This document shows, one piece after another, positions 15,961 through 30,808 of a stretch of 64,000 nucleotides of DNA (the stretch's first letter is position 1; each line of letters opens with the position of its first letter). Source of the DNA: Escherichia coli (GTDB lineage Bacteria > Pseudomonadota > Gammaproteobacteria > Enterobacterales > Enterobacteriaceae); NCBI RefSeq assembly GCF_013122565.1, contig NZ_CP053258.1. The stretch is one strand, 5' to 3'. The notes under the pieces are model-generated. The model was not told the DNA's origin, did no database searches, and worked only from the letters and a program-made list of their open reading frames with translations. The position numbers were made by a program, and so were the translations under genes.

Positions 15961-17856
<1,896 letters not shown>

Positions 17857-17867
17857 TAATCTTAACC

Positions 17868-17892
17868 CGGCAAACATGTGTTTTGCCGGGTT
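17868..17892. terminator. Terminator hairpin after parE (CCCGGCAAA cat gtg TTTGCCGGG)
   Basis: 9-bp perfect palindrome with T-rich flank; lies between parE and the first islet gene. Confidence 0.6.
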
Positions 17893-17900
17893 GTCGTTGA

Positions 17901-18770
17901 TTATTTTATTGGGCACAGTTTGTTACGATCTGGAAATAGTGTTGCCAGCGAACCAGCCAGAGTTTTCCAGTCCGTAGCCATTTTTTCTGCTTGTGCAGTT
18001 GTTATTACTGCACCTTGTTGTTTAATAAGCTCATCCTCCACTCTGGTATAGTGAATAATGGTAAAATCCGTAGAGGACCATTTATCCTTAGAGAACATCT
18101 TCGTCATCGCATGAATGTTTGCTTGCCCGTCATCGATAAAAATAATCGCGTCATATTTGTTCCCCATTTTATCCAGCATATAATCGAGAATTACGCCTTT
18201 ATCTTGCCCGGAAGAAAAAAATACCCCCTGGCTGTACAGCCATGACCGTTTGAGTTTCCCTTTTTCAAAGGGTGGCAAAGTATCCTCTTTCTTCCTGAGT
18301 GCGGAAGACGAAAAATCAATGCCGTTTCGCTTTAATTCCCGCAATGTCGGAAAGAGAGTATCCGGTGCACGGGATGTCAGAGCAAAAGCGGTATGCTTTT
18401 GTTGCCACTGTTTTAACATTGTCGGTAACTGTGGCTCGGTAAGCTGCATAGGGCTAAGTTCGTAAAGCATACTGATTGTATTTTCATACAGGCAAGGAAC
18501 TTTTTGCGAGTCATCCGGCTTTAAGGGCAATTTATCGGTTTGCCATTGATACCAGATATCACCGCCAATGCGTGTGCCACTCGTTAATAACGTATTATCA
18601 ATGTCAAAAACCAATAATATCTTATCGGATGGATAGAGAGTTTCCTTTTCGGTGATAATTTTACTGACCGCACTATATTCGCCAGTAACTATATTTTTTA
18701 CCTGTGCGTAAGATAAAGCAGGCAGAGCAGAGAGCATCATCCAGAGAATGATTTTAAATTTATTATTCAT
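17901..18770 (-). CDS. Secreted HAD-superfamily phosphatase (acid phosphatase-like)
   Basis: 289-aa ORF; N-terminal signal peptide (MNNKFKIILWMMLSALPALSYAQ); HAD motif I DIDNTL; later FIDDGQ motif. Confidence 0.65.
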   Translation of the reverse strand: MNNKFKIILWMMLSALPALSYAQVKNIVTGEYSAVSKIITEKETLYPSDKILLVFDIDNTLLTSGTRIGGDIWYQWQTDKLPLKPDDSQKVPCLYENTISMLYELSPMQLTEPQLPTMLKQWQQKHTAFALTSRAPDTLFPTLRELKRNGIDFSSSALRKKEDTLPPFEKGKLKRSWLYSQGVFFSSGQDKGVILDYMLDKMGNKYDAIIFIDDGQANIHAMTKMFSKDKWSSTDFTIIHYTRVEDELIKQQGAVITTAQAEKMATDWKTLAGSLATLFPDRNKLCPIK

Positions 18771-18783
18771 TTTTTATTCCAGA

Positions 18784-19518
18784 TTAGAAAGTATAAGTCA
18801 GACCCCAGCGCCAGCGGATTTGGCGATTACTTGATGTTTTATCCACACCTTTATAATCCGCAATACTCATATAGGGTATCCACGATCCAATTTTGTACCC
18901 TACTTTAAATGATGCGGTATAGTTTTTATGGCCATCATTCCACGTTAAATAACCATTATTGTAATAGACCAGGTTTAACTGATATTGGAAGTTGGTTTTT
19001 TGTGGTCGATAGTCGATCCACACATCATAACGGCGGTTATTACGATCATCGTTGCCATAACCTTTGGATTTATCGGTGGCTTTATCCATGTCATAACGAA
19101 ACCGACCCGAAACTTTCCATTCTTTGCTGAAGTCATAACCCGCAGAAAGACCATATTCGTAAGTTGACCAATATTGCGTGGTATCAAGCCAGAACATGGG
19201 TTCTAACCAGAATTTTTTGTCATCCAGCGGCTTAAAGCGGTAAACAACAGATAATCCTGTTCCGTTATTGCCAAATTGTGAGGGGTCCCACTTATCTTTA
19301 TCACCTTCATCGGTGTTATAGCGTAATTCTCCCATCAAACCGATACCATTACTAAAAAATGTACCAAATTCAACGCGGTCCGCGTGGGTGCGAGTATCAT
19401 CAAGATACTCATGACGATAATCAATAAATCCATGCGGCTGTTCTGCACAGACTAGTGTAGGTGACAGGCAGGATAACATTGTTATTCCTGCAAGTGATAT
19501 TTTAAGATAAGAATTCAT
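18784..19518 (-). CDS. Outer-membrane beta-barrel porin, KdgM/NanC family (tentative)
   Basis: 244-aa ORF; signal peptide; Tyr/Trp/Gly-rich alternating pattern; C-terminal ...GLTYTF; IDYRHE motif near the N-terminus. Confidence 0.6.
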   Translation of the reverse strand: MNSYLKISLAGITMLSCLSPTLVCAEQPHGFIDYRHEYLDDTRTHADRVEFGTFFSNGIGLMGELRYNTDEGDKDKWDPSQFGNNGTGLSVVYRFKPLDDKKFWLEPMFWLDTTQYWSTYEYGLSAGYDFSKEWKVSGRFRYDMDKATDKSKGYGNDDRNNRRYDVWIDYRPQKTNFQYQLNLVYYNNGYLTWNDGHKNYTASFKVGYKIGSWIPYMSIADYKGVDKTSSNRQIRWRWGLTYTF

Positions 19519-19613
19519 AATATTCCCTTTCAGAATAAAATATATTTTTGGTGATCGAATACACCATCTGATGATTCCAGGTATTAGAATGTTTTTGTAT
19601 CTATAGTTTGACT

Positions 19614-20738
19614 TTAAACTTTAAGTTTGTTTTCCTTATCAATGAATAGATAAAATTTCGTCTGTTGATGGGGCTGGAAATTATTATCAGATACAAATAT
19701 TAACGATGTATGCCCATCAATCAGAGGACCGAAGGTTACCCCTTCAATACAATCCGCAGAGGAAGTGTAATCAGCAAAATCAATTAATAATTTTTTACTG
19801 ACGGGTTGTAACGTGGATTTATTGGACCAATCTTGCAGACTGTCAATATTCTTGATATCGCTGGCAGCAGTTAAATCGACCATATAAACTCTGACAGAGT
19901 AATCCCAGTCATTGAACCCAGCACTGACGTTTCTGCCGGAACGTTCGATGACCAACAATTGGTGATCATTCAGCGCCAGGACCTCGGATACGCCATTATC
20001 ATTAATACCGAACTTACTCACTTGCGGAACAGGATCAGTAATATAGAGATATTCATGCAATTGCTTTGAAGGTCGACCGTCTGCATCTATAGAAAATTGC
20101 AGTAAGCGTGCTGTGCCTGAATTTATTGGACTTGCAATAGGCCCATCCTGTTTAAGGCTGCTTTCAACGGCGATAAAAAGTGATTTTCCATCTGGTGTAA
20201 CTGTCAGGCCCTCCCAGGCGTTGCCGCTGCGAATACCATTGCTGCTCTCTTTGTCAGAACTAATATTAAAGCGAGCAGGAAATAAAGACGTAAAATCTTT
20301 CTCCATTACGCCATCGAGAGTGCTCAGACGCAGTGGAGCACCTAACTCCGAACTCCAGAGTAATGATTTACCATTGTGTGTCAGGGCCAGACCTTCGGCA
20401 TCCACCGTATTGGTCACGAAAGGCTGCTGTTTTGCATCAAGCAGTGGACGCTGGTTGAGAAAATTCACTTGCTCAATGCCCCTGGATGATACCTGTATTT
20501 TTAGTGTATAAAGACTGGCATCTCCTTCTTTATTATTGTTTCTGCTATCGTTAATAGCATAGAAAATATTTTTTTTTGCATCAAATGTGATGGCTGATAG
20601 CCCCGCGATTGTGACATTGTTCTGCTTTTCTCCCGTCCGGAAGTTAAACTCCCCAGCATAATGAAGAAAACTGTTTGCCTGCGCTGTTGTGCATAACAGC
20701 GGTAATGCCAGAAAAATAGCGGCATATCTTATTTTCAT
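19614..20738 (-). CDS. Secreted beta-propeller-like protein, phytase-like esterase family (tentative)
   Basis: 374-aa ORF; signal peptide MKIRYAAIFLALPLLCTTAQA; repeated AEGLA / EGLTVTPDG / IEGVTF motifs. Confidence 0.5.
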   Translation of the reverse strand: MKIRYAAIFLALPLLCTTAQANSFLHYAGEFNFRTGEKQNNVTIAGLSAITFDAKKNIFYAINDSRNNNKEGDASLYTLKIQVSSRGIEQVNFLNQRPLLDAKQQPFVTNTVDAEGLALTHNGKSLLWSSELGAPLRLSTLDGVMEKDFTSLFPARFNISSDKESSNGIRSGNAWEGLTVTPDGKSLFIAVESSLKQDGPIASPINSGTARLLQFSIDADGRPSKQLHEYLYITDPVPQVSKFGINDNGVSEVLALNDHQLLVIERSGRNVSAGFNDWDYSVRVYMVDLTAASDIKNIDSLQDWSNKSTLQPVSKKLLIDFADYTSSADCIEGVTFGPLIDGHTSLIFVSDNNFQPHQQTKFYLFIDKENKLKV

Positions 20739-20765
20739 GATATTTACCTTTGTATATATATGATT

Positions 20766-21680
20766 TTAGTCGTGTTGTGAAAGAAAAAGATTAACCTCCG
20801 ATGGTGTCGGCAGATGACCTCTGGCACCTAATGCAGTAATATTTATTGCTGCTGTGGCAGAAGCAAATTTTAGTGCTTCAATTAAGGGCATGTTTTTTAT
20901 TAAGCTATAAACAAATGCACCATTAAAAGTATCTCCAGCGCCTGTGGTATCAATAACGGGAATTGTATAACTACCTATTTTTACTTGCTCATTGCCTTTG
21001 ACTGCAATTACTCCCCTAACATCCAGCGTAACCACGACAGCGTCAAGTTGATACTCGTCTTGTATATCATGCAGAAGTGTAAAATCTGGCTCTGTTGCAT
21101 AGCCACGAATAAAACCGTCATAATTAAATATCGCAATATCAGCAAGGTGTAAAATTCTGGCAAGGTGTTCAGGTGTTGCAATGATATGAGGCTCAATATC
21201 AACGACAACTTTTGTCATTTGGCTACGGGAATATTCGGCCAGCATACGAAATTTCTCGATATCTGCTGGCATCGTATAAAAATAACGGCTTTGCGCAATT
21301 GCCTGCAGGGCTTTTTCTTTATCCCACTCATGATCACTACCAGGCGAGTAAACCAACGTTTTTTCACCTAATTCATCAATAAAGATAATCGCGGTATTGG
21401 CAATCAATTCCGGAATTACCTGAACGAAATCACAATTTACATGATATTTTTTAAATCCATCAAGAATGATCGAGGCTGAATGATCATTGCCCACACATGA
21501 AACAGATACCACATTGAGACCCAGTTGTCCCATCGCACAGGCACTGTTGGCGACTGTGCCGCCAGCTTGTTCACCCAGACGTGTCCCGACAACTTTACCG
21601 CCACGAGTGGGGAGTGACGGGATAGATAAAAAAATATCTATATTTCCACTGCCTAAAGCGGCGACATCAAATTTCTTCAT
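20766..21680 (-). CDS. PfkB-family carbohydrate/nucleoside kinase
   Basis: ORF 20766-21734; start placed at MKKFDVAALG with GGGAGA ribosome-binding site; PfkB signature DTTGAGDTFNGAF. Confidence 0.8.
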   Translation of the reverse strand: MKKFDVAALGSGNIDIFLSIPSLPTRGGKVVGTRLGEQAGGTVANSACAMGQLGLNVVSVSCVGNDHSASIILDGFKKYHVNCDFVQVIPELIANTAIIFIDELGEKTLVYSPGSDHEWDKEKALQAIAQSRYFYTMPADIEKFRMLAEYSRSQMTKVVVDIEPHIIATPEHLARILHLADIAIFNYDGFIRGYATEPDFTLLHDIQDEYQLDAVVVTLDVRGVIAVKGNEQVKIGSYTIPVIDTTGAGDTFNGAFVYSLIKNMPLIEALKFASATAAINITALGARGHLPTPSEVNLFLSQHD

Positions 21681-21684
21681 AGTC

Positions 21685-22683
21685 TTATTTCTCCCTATGG
21701 CTAACGCGTTGCCCGCCTGCGTCGACATAATCACAACTTAAATGCCAGCACATTTCATATAACCACTGCATGACCAGAAATAAATTGTTGGACTCACTGG
21801 CGTCAGGTATAAAACTGATTAATTCTGCTGTCGCTCCCTGTTCAACAATTGCTTTTTGGGTTGCAAGGTAAAATGGGGACTCGCAGGATGTGGCTGGTAG
21901 TAAAATATAATGCTGACCGACACCAGCCTGATGTAAGCGTAATGAATGATAAAATTCTTCCAGTGGAAGGGCTGTCGCACGAATCTGTGGGCCGCAAGAA
22001 AGTAAATTGCTCCCCGATATTGCCAGTCCCCAACTTAAGCCACTCCCAAGAAACGTTATCTCTTTTTGTTGGTAAAAATGGCGCTTCTTTTGCTGCCAGT
22101 GCTGATTAATCTGGCTAAATTTCCCTTCCAAATCCTCTTCAATCTGCAGTGGTGTTAAGCCTGGACATAATTTTTGCGCTAAGCGCAGGAGGGCATAAAG
22201 TGTGACGCTACTACTTTGCGTTGGAATACCCTGCTTATTCGCCCATGTATAGAGCATGTTTTCTGTTATTGCGCAAAATGGTGTTCCAGGGCAATTCGTC
22301 ACACCCAGCACTTGCGCGTTTGAGCATACTGCGTGGCAGAGGGCGTCAACGGTCATTGATGGTCTGCCACTTGCACTGAGAATAATGATTAACGTTTCTT
22401 TCTGATAACGGGTTAAATCAGTCTGAAGGAAATCCCACGTTTGCAATGCGTAACAAAACAGATGTGTGTATTTCCCCAGCCAGGCGGCGGCACATAGTGC
22501 CACCGTCCAGGAGTCGCCCGATCCCACTATACAGACGCGTTCAACAGCACGTTTATCGAGCTGAAAAGTAGAAAAACATTCACCCCAGATAGCTGCCAAA
22601 TGGCGTAACGATGCCGCGGTAGCATTTATTTCCTCACGAGTTTGCGCTAATGGCATAACAGGAGTACGGGCTGGCATGTTCAT
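21685..22683 (-). CDS. SIS-domain sugar-phosphate isomerase/deglycase-like protein
   Basis: 332-aa ORF; SIS motifs (VGSGDSW, SASGRPS); start codon overlaps the stop of the upstream gene by 1 nt. Confidence 0.7.
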   Translation of the reverse strand: MNMPARTPVMPLAQTREEINATAASLRHLAAIWGECFSTFQLDKRAVERVCIVGSGDSWTVALCAAAWLGKYTHLFCYALQTWDFLQTDLTRYQKETLIIILSASGRPSMTVDALCHAVCSNAQVLGVTNCPGTPFCAITENMLYTWANKQGIPTQSSSVTLYALLRLAQKLCPGLTPLQIEEDLEGKFSQINQHWQQKKRHFYQQKEITFLGSGLSWGLAISGSNLLSCGPQIRATALPLEEFYHSLRLHQAGVGQHYILLPATSCESPFYLATQKAIVEQGATAELISFIPDASESNNLFLVMQWLYEMCWHLSCDYVDAGGQRVSHREK

Positions 22684-23759
22684 TATTTCTCCTGTGCCTG
22701 TAATGCAAGCAATGTCAGACCCGATGCGATCGCTTCAATATCGAAATCTTTATTATTTACGGCGCGGAAAAAGGCATATTTATCTTCAGGGAGCGCATCA
22801 AAACCGCGCCATGCCCCTGCAATTGCGCCTGCCATCGTAGCGATGCTATCGGTGTCATTGCCAATATTGGCGCAGGCATGAATGGTTTCCCAGGGTTCTC
22901 CTTTGCAGTACAGCAATAGACCGATTGCCGCAGGAATGGATTCATGGGCGGCAACAGAGTTACCAACCAAACCTTCCATTTCTCGCAGACAAGACTCCAG
23001 GTCATTGGCTCGTCTGGCGATGTCCGCTGCAAGTTGGATGCGCATGGCGATAGATGGCCCTGCGACACATCGTGCATATTGTTTGGCCAGGCGTTCGCCG
23101 TAATTCGCTCCCCAGATTGCGGCGTCCAGTAATGATGTGAGCGAGGCTTCTGGTAACATAGCTTGTGATGTCGCCGCAGCGATGGCGCAAGCGCTGGCAA
23201 TCGCAATATTGGTGTCATGCGAAGGTAGGCAAGTTATTAGCGCCAGGTGACACGCTTTTTCTTTCTTGCCTGGCCAGATCAATCCTGCCGGGGCTACACG
23301 CATTCCTGCGCCGTTCGTGGTGCCGACATTGGGTGCCTGACGAGAAGATGTTCCAATACGCCCAATGGTGTTTGTTGGTCTACCTTCTTTTAGTGCCTTG
23401 ACGATTTGTTCTGTTGTGGGGCCTTTATAATTTGCGTAGGGCTGCATATCGGCCCAACGCAGAAGACAAGCTAACCAGTCATTATTGGTGAAGTTATCAA
23501 ATCCAGCCTCAATTAACCCTTCTGAAAATACATACATTTGGCTGGAATCGTCGGTAATAAGTCCCGCAATACCATTTAATGAGCCAGCAAAGGTATCGGC
23601 AGGAGGAGAAACAAAGGCATTTAAAAAACCTCCCCATTGCGCTTTTATTTCATCAATGCTGTAGAGTTCAGTCGCTGCGCCTAATGCATCGCCCATACCC
23701 GCGCAGGCTAAAGAACCTAATATTTTGTTATAAATTACGGCTTGTTCTATTTTGTTCAC
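22683..23759 (-). CDS. ADP-ribosylglycohydrolase-family protein
   Basis: 358-aa ORF; N-terminal GMGDALGAATE and C-terminal GNDTDSIATMAG motifs typical of the family. Confidence 0.75.
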   Translation of the reverse strand: MNKIEQAVIYNKILGSLACAGMGDALGAATELYSIDEIKAQWGGFLNAFVSPPADTFAGSLNGIAGLITDDSSQMYVFSEGLIEAGFDNFTNNDWLACLLRWADMQPYANYKGPTTEQIVKALKEGRPTNTIGRIGTSSRQAPNVGTTNGAGMRVAPAGLIWPGKKEKACHLALITCLPSHDTNIAIASACAIAAATSQAMLPEASLTSLLDAAIWGANYGERLAKQYARCVAGPSIAMRIQLAADIARRANDLESCLREMEGLVGNSVAAHESIPAAIGLLLYCKGEPWETIHACANIGNDTDSIATMAGAIAGAWRGFDALPEDKYAFFRAVNNKDFDIEAIASGLTLLALQAQEK

Positions 23760-23772
23760 AATATTCTCTCTG

Positions 23773-24525
23773 TTACACGCTAAAACTGTCTTTTGTAATT
23801 CGTGCTTTGTAGGAGTACCGACTTGCGGGATAAACCATCTCTACATACTCCATTGGTTTGCGTTCCACGGATAACGTGACGCGGGTACAACTTAATACGA
23901 CGTCATCGGCAGTCAGTTCCAGTAATTGACGCTCAAGAGGCGAGGGAAGTCGGGCAGAGATAATTTCCGTTGCTTCTAAAGGTTTAATAGCGAGTTTTTC
24001 TTCCAGTAAAATATAGAGGGAACCCGTCGCCAGCAGCTCTTCCTGAGTTATTTCTTGTCCGTCATTTAACGCAAGCCATGATGTCTGAATACCCAGCGGC
24101 GTACTTCCCATATAGCGAATGCGTTTTATACAGAAAACGGTATGGACATGGATATCAAGTTCGAGATTTTTTCTGATAATATCACTTAGAGGAATATAAC
24201 CTATTTCAAGAATATTCTGTGCAGGTACGCCGCCACGAGCCTTAATGTCATCAGTAAAACTATGTAATAAATGATTTTCCCGACTGCGAGCCGGTAATGT
24301 AAATGTTCCTTGCCCGTGGACACTATGCAGGTATCCGCGTTGTTTCAAACTTTCTATTGCTTTCCGAATTGTTGTTCTGCTGCTTAAAAAATGTTCAGCA
24401 AGTTCTCTTTCTGTTGGTATAGCTTTGCCTTCTTTCCATTCACCGTTATCAATCTTTTTCTTTATTTCATCAAAAATTTCACGATGCTTAAGCTGACCTT
24501 TACTGGCTTTATAAATTCTTATCAT
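23773..24525 (-). CDS. GntR/HutC-family transcriptional regulator (winged-HTH + UTRA domain)
   Basis: 250-aa ORF; N-terminal HTH (PTERELAEHFLSSRTTIRKAIESL); first gene of the minus-strand cluster, divergent from the transporter. Confidence 0.8.
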   Translation of the reverse strand: MIRIYKASKGQLKHREIFDEIKKKIDNGEWKEGKAIPTERELAEHFLSSRTTIRKAIESLKQRGYLHSVHGQGTFTLPARSRENHLLHSFTDDIKARGGVPAQNILEIGYIPLSDIIRKNLELDIHVHTVFCIKRIRYMGSTPLGIQTSWLALNDGQEITQEELLATGSLYILLEEKLAIKPLEATEIISARLPSPLERQLLELTADDVVLSCTRVTLSVERKPMEYVEMVYPASRYSYKARITKDSFSV

Positions 24526-24707
24526 GACAAAGCCTCATTTCAAGTGGTTGATACCAACTCTACATTCTTTTATTTTTATTGCGCAGTATGCTTCTTTGTT
24601 ATCTGTGATATAAAACAGAAAAAACCACATTTATTATTAAAAATCATTCAGTTAAATGAGATTGGTTTTTATGTGATGCTGCTCAATATTAACTCAGTGG
24701 TTTGTTG

Positions 24708-24719
24708 TGGTATCTACCA
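24708..24719. promoter_or_regulatory. Palindrome TGGTATCTACCA in the divergent promoter region; candidate GntR/HutC operator
   Basis: Perfect inverted repeat TGGTA-tc-TACCA between the regulator and transporter genes. Confidence 0.4.
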
Positions 24720-24811
24720 ATGCATTTATTCTCACTCGTAAAGTTATGTGCTGAATGAGTTCCGATACATTTGTTTTTAATATAATTTCACGTGATCAAT
24801 GAGTGCTGTGT

Positions 24812-26143
24812 ATGAAACTGACAATAAATGAAAAGATAGGTTTTGGTGCCGGTGATATGGCTATTGCGATAGTAATGATGTCTTTAGCCATGATCATCAC
24901 TTATTTTTACACGGATGTATTTGGTCTGAAACCCGTCGACTTAGGTATTCTGTTATTTTCTGTACGTATCCTTGATGCTGTGATTGATCCAGTTGTGGGA
25001 ACAATGACAGACAGAACGAATACACGTTGGGGAAAATATCGGCCGTGGTTGCTTTTTATGTCAATACCGTTTGGGATAAGCATTTGGTTGATGTTCACCA
25101 CACCTGATACCGATTATTCAGTTAAGCTTTTATGGGCCTGGGCTACCTATGTGTTACTTACCTTGACCTATACGTTAATCGCTATTCCTTATGTTTCATT
25201 AATCAGCGTTATCACGGATGATCCACAAGAGCGATTGAGCGCCAATGGTTATCGTTTTGTTATGACAAAAATTGCCATGTTCGCCGTAACAATTATTGTT
25301 CCTTTATCTGCAATGTATCTTGGGAAGAATAACGTACAACTGGGTTATCAAATAGCAATGGGGGCAATGGGAATTCTGGCAACGTGTTTATGCCTGTATT
25401 GTTTTTTTAGCGTGAGAGAGCGCATCTACCATCCAAAACCCAGTCTCGGTATGGCCGCGCAGTTTCGGTTACTGATCAAAAATGATCAATGGCTCATTTT
25501 GGGCGCTGTAATTGCGATCATTATGTTTGGCGGGATTATTCGTAACTCTGTCGCTGCATATTATGCAAAATATTACCTGAATGGTGGGGATGCTTTAATT
25601 TCACCGTTTTTAACTTCAGGCGTGATCGCCTCTGTTCTGGCTATGATCGCTTGTACCTGGCTTACTCGACTCTACGACAAAATAAAAATATTTCGTTATA
25701 CCCAATTACTGGCGTTCGTGGTGGGTGGTGCGATGTATTTCGTGCAACCAAATTCTATAGTGTTAGCTTTTACATTTTATATTGTGGTGACCTTCCTGAC
25801 GGATATTCAGCTTCCCATTTATTGGGCATCCATTGCTGAGTCCGTGGATTACGGTGAAATGAAAACGGGGCAACGTGTTTCTGGCCTGGCATTTGGCGGG
25901 ATTCTCTTTTTCCAAAAGTTCGGTATGGGGCTGGCAGGGGGCTTTATCGGAATCGCTTTAGCCTATTTGGATTATCAACCTGGTGTAGAACAAACACCAC
26001 AGGCGCTGTGGGGGATCTGCCTGTTAATGACGATCATTCCCGCGATACTTAACCTGATTACCGGACTCATCATGCGATTTTATCTGATTAATAATGAATT
26101 TTACGAACAGATTAAAGCACGGTTACAGACGGCGGAAGAGTGA
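24812..26143 (+). CDS. GPH-family (glycoside-pentoside-hexuronide) cation symporter
   Basis: ORF 24803-26143 with about 12 predicted transmembrane helices; N-terminal GxGxGD and RWGKYRPW motifs typical of MelB/YicJ-like transporters; start uncertain. Confidence 0.75.
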   Translation: MKLTINEKIGFGAGDMAIAIVMMSLAMIITYFYTDVFGLKPVDLGILLFSVRILDAVIDPVVGTMTDRTNTRWGKYRPWLLFMSIPFGISIWLMFTTPDTDYSVKLLWAWATYVLLTLTYTLIAIPYVSLISVITDDPQERLSANGYRFVMTKIAMFAVTIIVPLSAMYLGKNNVQLGYQIAMGAMGILATCLCLYCFFSVRERIYHPKPSLGMAAQFRLLIKNDQWLILGAVIAIIMFGGIIRNSVAAYYAKYYLNGGDALISPFLTSGVIASVLAMIACTWLTRLYDKIKIFRYTQLLAFVVGGAMYFVQPNSIVLAFTFYIVVTFLTDIQLPIYWASIAESVDYGEMKTGQRVSGLAFGGILFFQKFGMGLAGGFIGIALAYLDYQPGVEQTPQALWGICLLMTIIPAILNLITGLIMRFYLINNEFYEQIKARLQTAEE

Positions 26144-26186
26144 ATATAAATGGCCGGCAAACAGCACCGGCCTCTTTTCAGGAATG

Positions 26187-26501
26187 TTAAATCCCTGGCT
26201 GCAGAATACGAATATTCATCTCCAGCACGTCACCTTTTACGGCTTCGCTATACGCCTTCATGTGCGGGGTTTGCAGATGCGCTTCAAGATGCGCGATGCT
26301 TTCCCACTGCTCTATCATCACGATAGAATCCGGTGCCATAGACTGGAAACTCACGCCAGCAGCGCAATCCACCATTGGCGCATAGCCGTGGCAACCTTCT
26401 TCTTTCAGTACGGTTGGAACGATTTTAGCAAACTGATCCAATACCGCCTGACGGTGATGTTGACCAGGACGAGTACGGATTTCTGCGATTACGGTAAGCA
26501 T
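26187..26501 (-). CDS. ygiN: Quinol monooxygenase
   Basis: 104-aa ORF (MLTVIAEIRTRPG...) downstream of mdaB. Confidence 0.9.
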   Translation of the reverse strand: MLTVIAEIRTRPGQHHRQAVLDQFAKIVPTVLKEEGCHGYAPMVDCAAGVSFQSMAPDSIVMIEQWESIAHLEAHLQTPHMKAYSEAVKGDVLEMNIRILQPGI

Positions 26502-26531: not shown

Positions 26532-27113
26532 TTAACCAAAAATTTCCACAAGATGCTTGCGATATTCTTCAGTATAGCGGGGAACATCAGGCATTTTTAT
26601 CACGTCATTAGCGATAAATGTCGGCAGCGGTTCCATGCCAAGGAATTGGTTTGCTTTATGGAACGGCAGATACACACCGTCAACGCCAACGCCGTGGAAG
26701 AACTGATCTTTTTCGGTGAAGGCTTCCATTGGTGCGTTCCAGGTCAGAGAGAGCATATATTTTTTTCCCTGTACCAGGCCGCCGGAACCGTATTTTTTCG
26801 ACGGATCTTTGCGGGTACGACCATCGCTGGCATACAGCGTGCCGTGACCTTCGGTGAATACATCATCAATGTATTTTTTCACTGTCCACGGCGCGCCCAT
26901 CCACCAGCCTGGCATCTGCCAGATCACCACATCAGCCCAGAGAAAGTTTTGTACTTCCGCTTTGACATCGTAGTCGCTGTCGGCGCGAACGATGCGGACA
27001 TCATGCCCGAGGTCGCGCAGTGTGCCATCCGCGACTTCGGTCAGGGTGTCGTTCAGTTGACCATTGGAGTGGGCGAATTTTTTCGCGCCGTTGATAATCA
27101 GGATGTTGCTCAT
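26532..27113 (-). CDS. mdaB: NADPH:quinone oxidoreductase MdaB
   Basis: 193-aa flavodoxin-like ORF (MSNILIINGAKKF...). Confidence 0.9.
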   Translation of the reverse strand: MSNILIINGAKKFAHSNGQLNDTLTEVADGTLRDLGHDVRIVRADSDYDVKAEVQNFLWADVVIWQMPGWWMGAPWTVKKYIDDVFTEGHGTLYASDGRTRKDPSKKYGSGGLVQGKKYMLSLTWNAPMEAFTEKDQFFHGVGVDGVYLPFHKANQFLGMEPLPTFIANDVIKMPDVPRYTEEYRKHLVEIFG

Positions 27114-27222
27114 TTTTTAACCTCAAGGTGAGACGTTTTCCGACTATAGTACGTCACAGAGCGGTACGGTGAAATTAGCAAAATGTGCAAAGTCTTTTGC
27201 GAATTTAGCAAAAATCTTACCC

Positions 27223-28572
27223 TTACCAGCTTACCTTCGCCTCAAATCCACCTTGTTTCGCATTCCCAAATTCAACATTCATGCCATGCAATTTGGCGAT
27301 TCGCTGGACAATCGATAGCCCAAGCCCGCTGCCGGTAGCGGTTTGTCCGGGTGGGCGATAGAAGCGTTCGCCAATTCTCGCCAGTGCCTCTGGTGTCACA
27401 CCGGGGCCGTTATCCCTCACGATGAAATTATCAGCATTCAGCGTGACGTCTACCACGCTGCCCTGTGGACTGTAGCGCACGGCGTTATCCAGCAAATTTC
27501 GCACCAACAAACTTAGCAATAGCGGTTGTCCGGTGCGTTTGATGCCGTGGGCATTGAGTGTCAGTCGCACGTCAATTTTCGCCTGCTGCGCCGTGTGGTA
27601 AATATCCATCACCGACGATTGCAGGAGATCTTCAAGCGGGATCTCCGCGACGTCCTGAAGGTTATCCAGTGAGTCCAGCCGCGATAGCGTGAGCAGTTGA
27701 TCAACCAGACGAGTAGCGCGATCGATCCCGGAATGTAATTGAAGCAGTGCTTTTTTCCGCGCCTGCGGATCATCGTCAGAGAGCTGCGCAACTTCGGTTT
27801 GCACTTTCAGCGCTGTTAACGGGCTACGAAGTTCGTGAGCTGCGTCGGAGGTAAAGCGTCGTTCACGAACCATCATCGCATGTGTGCGGGCGAACAGTTG
27901 ATTTAGCGACTCAACCAACGGACGCACTTCGCTGGGTACGCCAGTCGCGTTTAGTGGTTTTTCCGAGTCAGGGTCACGCATACGTAGCGCCAGCGCCAGC
28001 TTGTTCAGCGGCGCGAGTTCACGACCCAGTAGTACCATCATGATGATTAACATAATCGGCAGTGCGACCAGCCACGGGAGCAATTGCCCGGTAACAATCG
28101 CCAGCGCCATGTCTTCACGGTATTCCCATTCCTGACCAACAACGATGCGATATTTGCCATCAGGTGAGGTCATCCAGACAAAACGCCATTGATCTTTATC
28201 GCCCACCAGTTGCCCGTCAGCAAAACCTTCCCGTTGATAGCTATAGGGAATATCTTCTCCGTTATCGCCATCGTTAAGGACCATTCTGCCGTCGTGGGTA
28301 AAGATGGCAAAGGTCAGCGCATCGTCATCAACATGACCGTGTTTTAATTTATTTGGCGTCTGTGCCATGCGATCCGCCGCGTTGATTTCGTTGAGATCGA
28401 GCGTACTTAACCGCTTGGCAAACAGCATCAGTTGGGTGTCGAACAACTCATCGACGTTATCCGTTGTTTGTTTCCAGGCGACAAAGCTGGAAAGCAGCCA
28501 GGTCACCGAGGCCAGAATTAAAAAGATTAGCGTCAGCCTGACACGCAGACTAAGACGTTGGGTAAATTTCAT
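27223..28572 (-). CDS. qseC: Sensor histidine kinase QseC
   Basis: 449-aa ORF; two transmembrane segments, H-box HELRSPL, ATPase domain; overlaps qseB by 4 nt. Confidence 0.9.
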
Positions 28573-29228
28573 TTCTCACCTAATGTGTAGCCAATACCAT
28601 GCACGGTACGAATAAAATCACTGCCGAGTTTGCGTCGCAGATGATGCACATGCACTTCAACGGCATTACTGGTGACCTCTTCGTCCCAGGTATACAGTTT
28701 CTCTTCAATCAGTTTGCGCGGCAGTACCCGACCAGCGTTACGCATCAGTAATTCCAGCAGAGCAAATTCTTTTGGTTTCAGTATTAAGGGTTCGCCAGCC
28801 AGCGTGGCGATACGTTTGCCGGGGTCGAGCATGACGTTACCGTGGCGCAGTTCGTTGCTGGCCTGGCCGTTGGTTCGGCGCATCAGAGCTTCCAGCCTGG
28901 CGGCGACTTCTATCAACGCAAAAGGTTTACACAGATAATCGTCAGCTCCCAGACGCAGCCCCTCAACACGTTCCGCTAACGCATCGCGCGCGGTCAGGAT
29001 CAGTACCGGCTCACGCTGACCTTTTTCTCGCCATTCGCGCAAAATATCGCGACCATCCATGCCTGGTAAGGTTAAATCCAGGATCACCGCATCATAAGGC
29101 GCACTATATAGCGCCTCTTTTCCCTGACGACCTTGTGTAAACCAGTCGACGCTAAAACCCATTTTACCAAGGCCAGTTTTGATGCCGTCGCCAATCAGCA
29201 TGTCATCTTCTATCAGTAAAATTCGCAT
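28569..29228 (-). CDS. qseB: Response regulator QseB (OmpR family)
   Basis: 219-aa ORF; receiver domain (MRILLIEDD...DLTLPGMDG) and winged-helix output domain. Confidence 0.9.
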
Positions 29229-30511: not shown

Positions 30512-30808
30512 ATGGAAAAACGCACACCACATACACGTTTGAGTCAGGTTAAAAAACTTGTCAATGCCGGGCAAGTTCGTACAACACGTAGTGCACTGTT
30601 AAATGCAGATGAGTTAGGTTTGGATTTTGATGGTATGTGTAATGTTATCATTGGATTATCAGAGAACGACTTTTATAAAAGCATGACCACCTACTCTGAT
30701 CATACTATCTGGCAGGATGTTTACAGACCCAGGCTTGTTACAGGCCAGGTTTATCTTAAAATTACGGTAATTCATGACGTACTGATCGTCTCATTTAAGG
30801 AGAAGTAA
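30512..30808 (+). CDS. mqsR: Type II toxin MqsR (mRNA interferase)
   Basis: 98-aa ORF MEKRTPHTRLSQVKKLV...; immediately precedes mqsA. Confidence 0.9.
   Translation: MEKRTPHTRLSQVKKLVNAGQVRTTRSALLNADELGLDFDGMCNVIIGLSENDFYKSMTTYSDHTIWQDVYRPRLVTGQVYLKITVIHDVLIVSFKEK

Follow-up and report, generated by a model that had tools for sequence, protein, structure and literature searches.

In the E. coli strain analysed here, qseC and mdaB are separated by a short interval without ygiZ, the gene that K-12 carries between them. Taken as a whole, the explanation that we consider very probable is that this interval is an ancestral mdaB promoter interval, that a cassette was inserted into it later in other lineages, and that in K-12 the cassette decayed. 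The 109-bp gap would thus be the ancestral, uninserted arrangement and not a loss of ygiZ. "The window" refers below to the whole stretch of DNA analysed, which is 64 kb long.

The four genes of the locus are all on the minus strand of the window. According to the ORF list and translations, they are ygiN (26187..26501), mdaB (26532..27113), qseC (27223..28572) and qseB (28569..29228). mdaB encodes an NADPH:quinone oxidoreductase of 193 aa and qseC encodes a sensor histidine kinase of 449 aa; for both, the ORF and translation matched the RefSeq annotation. A tblastn comparison gave 100% identity between MdaB of the window and that of K-12. The mdaB start codon, an ATG, is at 27113 and the qseC stop codon TAA is 27223-27225, leaving an interval in the empty state of exactly 109 bp (27114..27222), with the coordinates and length that the first-pass annotation had given. 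A tblastn search with YgiZ over the 64-kb window found no homologue anywhere.

Two other features of the neighborhood were observed. An 8.3-kb block (17857..26186) lies between parE, which ends at 17856, and ygiN, where K-12 has 47 bp. It contains two unannotated ORFs and genes for a phytase-like esterase, a carbohydrate kinase, a SIS-domain protein, an ADP-ribosylglycohydrolase, a GntR regulator and an MFS transporter. At the same position UPEC132 has an island with a TonB-dependent siderophore receptor and an ABC transporter. As the islands of the window and UPEC132 are different, the parE-ygiN junction is a second variable site adjoining qseC-mdaB. On the other side of the locus, the window has mqsR as an intact ORF of 98 codons (30512..30808); in the closest complete genome found, that of strain 700481, the gene carries a frameshift annotation (L085:10513-10808).

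The first-pass annotation had tentatively placed ygiZ between qseC and mdaB in K-12 and had flagged a possible presence/absence difference, to be checked by alignment with the K-12 interval. The alignment bore out both points. The interval of K-12 GM4792 is not equally short: it measures 696 bp and contains ygiZ, compared with 109 bp without ygiZ in the window. K-12 ygiZ encodes a 110-aa protein of Pfam family DUF2645 and is on the strand opposite to qseC and mdaB. The flanking genes of K-12 qseC-ygiZ-mdaB (b3026-b3028), their order and their orientation are the same as in the window. The mdaB-proximal 104 bp of the K-12 interval, from the ATG through the second copy of a direct repeat described below, are also the same except at two positions. 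The difference is the 587 extra bp of K-12, which carry ygiZ along with a hairpin that is shared with the qseC end; none of this DNA is present in the window.

Alignments of empty with filled alleles showed similarity up to about 27217 on the mdaB side and again from 27223 on the qseC side. The insertion point, at about 27218..27225, covers the sole unconstrained bases between the qseC stop codon and the conserved promoter block. According to the alignments and junctions, the poorly conserved bases and the qseC stop codon (27214..27225) are where other strains carry ygiZ or hcp-effector-ygiZ. Other empty junctions, including those of O157:H7, E. albertii, Salmonella, Citrobacter and Klebsiella, have the same length (102-110 bp), the same promoter core and no gene between qseC and mdaB. 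The window differs from them by point substitutions only. Its private changes include A for G at 27214 and T in place of G at 27139.

Four sequence queries were run against 5,426 complete E. coli genomes. ygiZ was found in 4,600 of them (85%). The empty junction, detected with a 101-bp spanning probe covered to at least 80%, was found in 821, including O157:H7. hcp together with a gene for a 236-aa protein was present in 1,262 genomes, among them ST131 JJ1886, an ST95 strain and Nissle 1917, and the junction between the 236-aa gene and ygiZ was intact in 1,261 (at least 80% covered). The site in E. coli is empty in about 15%, carries ygiZ only in about 61%, and carries the three-gene cassette, as in UPEC132, in about 23%. 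TUM18780 has a ygiZ of a second allele class, with 89% protein identity to K-12 YgiZ; its interval of 735 bp has 39 extra bases upstream of ygiZ (approximately L003:2190-2232). In one E. coli genome (NZ_OZ510750.1), the orphan hcp of the cassette is broken by IS1A, which is another route of cassette decay.

For the outgroup sample, 80 Enterobacteriaceae species representatives were fetched with MdaB as the query. qseB, qseC, mdaB and ygiN were collinear in all 80, with qseC and mdaB adjacent and co-directional. The distance from the qseC stop codon to the mdaB ATG, measured by script, was 102-110 bp in 73 representatives. Two further intervals (L044 and L061) had been scored as long through tblastn truncation artefacts; their inspected sequences show the normal short junction, bringing the count to at least 75 of 80. 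The short-interval set includes E. albertii, Escherichia sp. MOD1, Salmonella arizonae, Salmonella diarizonae, Citrobacter, Klebsiella and Enterobacter. Only three representatives were clearly filled, namely E. whittamii with ygiZ only, and Citrobacter werkmanii and a Pseudocitrobacter MAG with the full cassette. One interval, scored as 144 bp by the script, was placed in neither the short nor the clearly filled count.

The spacer of the window, on the mdaB strand, is GCTGGTAA-GG-GTAAGAT-TTTTGC (in shorter form GGTAA-GG-GTAAGAT-TTTTGC). That of E. albertii, GCTGGTAG-CG-GTAAGAC-TTTTGC (GGTAG-CG-...), has equal length and is collinear with it. No island remnants were found at the window junction by comparison with the outgroups, and the junction has the form of an empty one. 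The filled alleles of K-12, TUM18780, UPEC132 and E. whittamii have identical outer junctions. At the mdaB-proximal end, the filled Escherichia alleles read GGTGAG----TCAGAGTAAGA(TCAGA)C and so match the empty MOD1 allele over its qseC 3' end and spacer, GGTGAGCTGGTCAGAGTAAGAC. We read this relic as a likely scar, left by an insertion at the extreme end of qseC. It is absent from the window. In addition, the inserted DNA has a G+C content of 34-35%, versus 50-53% for mdaB and qseC. The outgroups, the collinear spacer, the scar and the low G+C content together suggested that the empty state is ancestral and that the K-12 state is derived.

The relic of the qseC 3' end and spacer is a degenerate second copy, located at L001:2015-2038 in K-12 and at the same place in L003, L004 and L005. 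It is closer to the empty allele of Escherichia sp. MOD1-EC7003 than to that of E. coli, and it has an extra TCAGA. The islands of C. werkmanii and Pseudocitrobacter occupy the same few bases without a qseC-end relic. As for a target-site duplication, only the short qseC-end relic was seen, at one of the junctions in Escherichia, and none was seen in Citrobacter or Pseudocitrobacter. No recombinase was found in the insert of 0.6-1.8 kb, and the insert did not qualify as an integrase- or transposase-borne mobile element.

A short interval could also arise by a secondary clean deletion, if the lineage of the window once had ygiZ or the whole cassette. The high frequency of ygiZ in E. coli and its presence in E. 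whittamii agree with such a history. So do the window flanks, which are 99.0% similar to K-12-type alleles versus 98.7% to the best empty allele. The island may also be old in these bacteria, since its proteins diverge roughly as QseC does: for C. werkmanii and the Pseudocitrobacter MAG, the values are 77% and 69% for Hcp and 78% and 69% for QseC. This divergence would also fit an old resident island that was lost many times. However, a deletion would need to restore, exact to the base, a spacer with the length and pattern seen in E. albertii and other empty species. It would also need to take away the TCAGA duplication together with the relic of the qseC end, both of which all filled alleles carry. 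Moreover, independent deletions would not yield an empty state of uniform length in at least 75 of 80 species. We therefore consider a deletion unlikely, and we hold with considerable confidence, as part of the whole explanation, that the gap reflects the ancestral uninserted arrangement. Within E. coli, a kept empty allele and the re-acquisition of that allele by homologous recombination both fit.

The intervals of 18 Enterobacteriaceae species and genera were aligned. A 23-nt core, GCAAAAGACTTTGCACATTTTGC on the mdaB strand, was nearly invariant in all 18, with a single substitution in each of two columns. Empty and filled alleles alike retain the whole stretch from the mdaB ATG to the second repeat copy. 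The core shares bases with a marbox-like site, which is next to a weak candidate -35 element. The candidate mdaB -10 element is TACTAT (27146..27151, minus strand), where TAnnAT is at a fixed position in the 18 aligned intervals. The candidate -35 element, TTCACC (27168..27173, minus strand), is located 16 bp upstream of it and matches four of six consensus positions. Together they match 8 of 12 consensus positions, which is under the threshold of the promoter scan, and so the pair was not called. A weak -35 element is as expected of an activator-dependent promoter.

The marbox-like site, TTTGCACATTTTGCTAATTT (27172..27191, minus strand), was located by consensus match and conservation and overlaps the candidate -35 element by two bases. 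It matches 12 of the 14 specified positions of AYnGCACnnWnnRYYAAAYn (the scan lists 27173-27191, with 2 mismatches). Matches at that level are not distinctive, with 16 in the window versus 18 expected, and the consensus was dropped as standalone evidence because it showed no enrichment over chance. The candidate was kept for its position, its cross-genus conservation and the reported membership of mdaB in the mar regulon, which is given in a passage of PMC2989944 citing Martin and Rosner 2002. The layout of a marbox-like site at a weak -35 element, with the 2-bp overlap with TTCACC and the 16-bp spacer to TACTAT, is present and is conserved across genera. In sequence and placement, the 20-bp candidate site resembles those of mar/sox/rob promoters, where the marbox is at or overlaps the -35 element; its match to the consensus does not stand out statistically.

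Just upstream of the marbox-like site, the alignment of the 18 intervals revealed a palindrome, TTGC-N7-GCAA (27197..27211). Its half-sites are largely conserved in most of the aligned genera and its seven spacer bases vary. It is a probable operator for a dimeric regulator. The 109-bp interval is thus, in all likelihood and as one part of the whole explanation, the mdaB promoter region, with candidate promoter elements and a candidate marbox.

We also considered that the interval might hide an element other than a promoter, such as a micro-ORF, a small RNA or a qseBC terminator. It has one ORF, a frame of 33 codons with a TTG start (27110..27211, minus strand), and an AT-rich inverted repeat of 12 bp, and the qseBC transcript must either end or read through in the interval. 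However, the TTG frame overlaps the mdaB start and the promoter. A search of the interval against Rfam gave no match at E ≤ 1, and its RNA folding equaled that of shuffled sequences (z = 0.00). A terminator scan of 27114..27222 found no G+C-rich hairpin followed by a T-run, as an intrinsic qseBC terminator would have; filled alleles carry a hairpin at this place. Furthermore, fixed half-sites with variable spacers are the pattern of protein-binding DNA, not of coding sequence or RNA. A hidden element of this kind is therefore very improbable, and the first-pass annotation was right in judging the interval too short for a gene. The reading as a promoter region was retained.

The short direct repeat that had been noticed in the interval was confirmed by a repeat search (family D1). 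Its copies, GAAATTAGCAAAA (27171-27183, plus strand) and GAATTTAGCAAAA (27201-27213, plus strand), are 13 nt long, 30 bp apart from start to start, and identical at 12 of 13 positions. A repeat this good occurred in 2 of 2000 dinucleotide-preserving shuffles of the interval, a test picked after the repeat was seen, and an exact repeat of at least 9 nt occurred in 23 of 2000. The repeat is not due to chance, with the reservation that the test was chosen post hoc. An inverted repeat is formed by these bases as well, 27172-27183 being complementary to 27195-27206 at 11 of 12 positions. Copy 1 is inside the marbox-like site, and copy 2 overlaps the TTGC-N7-GCAA palindrome. The TTGC/GCAA core of copy 2 is kept in most of the aligned genera, and the remainder of the copy varies.

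A repeat so unlikely by chance, with its second copy ending four bases short of the point where empty and filled alleles diverge, might be taken for an indel footprint, as a target-site duplication or as a recombination substrate for ygiZ excision. This was rejected because both copies are on one side of the insertion in every allele. They are unchanged and in the same places in empty, ygiZ-bearing and cassette-bearing alleles, and thus do not flank the inserted DNA. Copy 1 moreover belongs to the 23-nt core, which hardly changes from genus to genus, and most of the genera that never had the island keep the TTGC core of copy 2. A footprint is accordingly extremely improbable. The repeat is unrelated to the indel and, as judged from its conservation, is formed by putative regulatory half-sites of the conserved mdaB promoter region.

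The cassette absent from the window is represented by UPEC132 (L004:8664-10195), where it consists of hcp, the gene of the 236-aa protein and ygiZ. The same cassette is also in L018, L077 and L086-L090. The Hcp/TssD protein of UPEC132 has 159 aa (L004:8664-9143) and matched PF05638 at 8e-20 and TIGR03344 at 2e-58. The orphan hcp is not APEC hcp2B, a candidate we rejected; hcp2B belongs to an hcp2B-vgrG2-xmtU/xmtV operon (PMC5874247). Likewise, the orphan Hcp-ET1 of STEC proved unrelated.

The 236-aa protein had no sequence match in Pfam (including SLT), NCBIfam or PDB, by phmmer and profile searches. Its homologues are in E. coli, Citrobacter, Pectobacterium, Erwinia, Serratia and Chania and are all annotated as hypothetical. 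Five other genera also keep the three genes of the cassette together. Pectobacterium, Serratia and Chania have this trio in unrelated contexts, with the effector and DUF2645 genes adjacent or overlapping by 4 nt.

The protein was modeled with medium confidence as a lysozyme/lytic-transglycosylase fold, the fold search alone being informative. The search with this model gave the lytic transglycosylases Slt (6fc4) and MltE (4hjy), both with a score of 9.9, followed by the lytic transglycosylases Slt70 (1qsa) and MltC (4c5f), both at 9.1. The T6SS muramidase effector Tse3 (4luq) scored 9.0, a goose-type lysozyme (4g9s) 8.3, and a T6SS effector-immunity complex of P. protegens (4kt3) 6.2. The product of the hcp-adjacent gene is thus predicted to have a toxin fold. 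In the family alignment, the invariant residues are E82 in I-E-S, G114/S115 and Q119 in TSFGSxxxQ, and Y188-N189-R190-G191. We take these motifs to resemble E-S, G-L-M-Q and A-Y-N-x-G of family 1 lytic transglycosylases.

Three stretches of YgiZ are hydrophobic, as would fit a protein of the inner membrane. In E. coli, ygiZ comes after the effector gene in every case, and ygiZ often occurs without the effector gene. Toxin/immunity pairs typically show such an asymmetry, in which the immunity gene may be found alone and the effector gene never is. Given that asymmetry, we think that K-12 ygiZ may be an orphan T6SS immunity gene. On balance, and by a modest measure, we favor the view that this DUF2645 gene is the orphan immunity gene of an undescribed family of Hcp-linked, lysozyme/lytic-transglycosylase-like T6SS effectors. 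The cassette is like Tse3-Tsi3 and Tge2-Tgi2 in that an hcp-linked lysozyme-like gene is followed by a small partner gene that often survives alone. It differs in that the 236-aa protein has no detectable sequence similarity to the Tse3/Tge families. The immunity proteins of such pairs are typically periplasmic. YgiZ, as a putative immunity protein, looks like an inner-membrane protein and would be expected to differ from the periplasmic type.

A literature search on DUF2645, ygiZ, orphan hcp, and mdaB with hcp found nothing tying ygiZ to T6SS. ygiZ is regulated by BglJ-RcsB, an activator of H-NS-repressed loci (PMC3950696), and this control fits horizontally acquired AT-rich DNA. K-12 shares with the UPEC132 cassette only the first 177 bp, on the promoter side of the cassette. 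In ygiZ-only alleles, including K-12, the approximately 140 bp upstream of ygiZ contain no significant hcp or effector remnant.

We propose the following history for this locus. The interval of the window would be a never-inserted Enterobacteriaceae qseC-mdaB region that carries the promoter of mdaB(-ygiN) and its regulatory sites. These sites would be the weak -35/-10 pair, the marbox-like site for MarA/SoxS/Rob-type activators abutting the -35 element, and TTGC-N7-GCAA upstream of it. An AT-rich accessory cassette would have entered at the qseC stop codon, where the interval has its only unconstrained bases. It would have consisted of hcp, a gene for a lysozyme-like T6SS effector, and ygiZ, probably the immunity gene for that effector. 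Later, in the lineage of K-12, the cassette would have decayed to ygiZ alone.

The difference found in the window is ordinary gene-content variation of E. coli, already known and visible in public annotations. The spacer between qseC and mdaB is an insertion site, and what occupies it depends on the lineage: nothing, ygiZ only or the full cassette. Strong constraint acts on the mdaB promoter region as far as this site. If the proposed roles are true, ygiZ, an inner membrane protein gene of K-12 whose function has long been unassigned, would gain an immunity role. The approximately 15% of E. coli with an empty site, including this strain and O157:H7, would then be unprotected against the effector, and lineage-specific susceptibility would be predicted in T6SS competition among E. 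coli.
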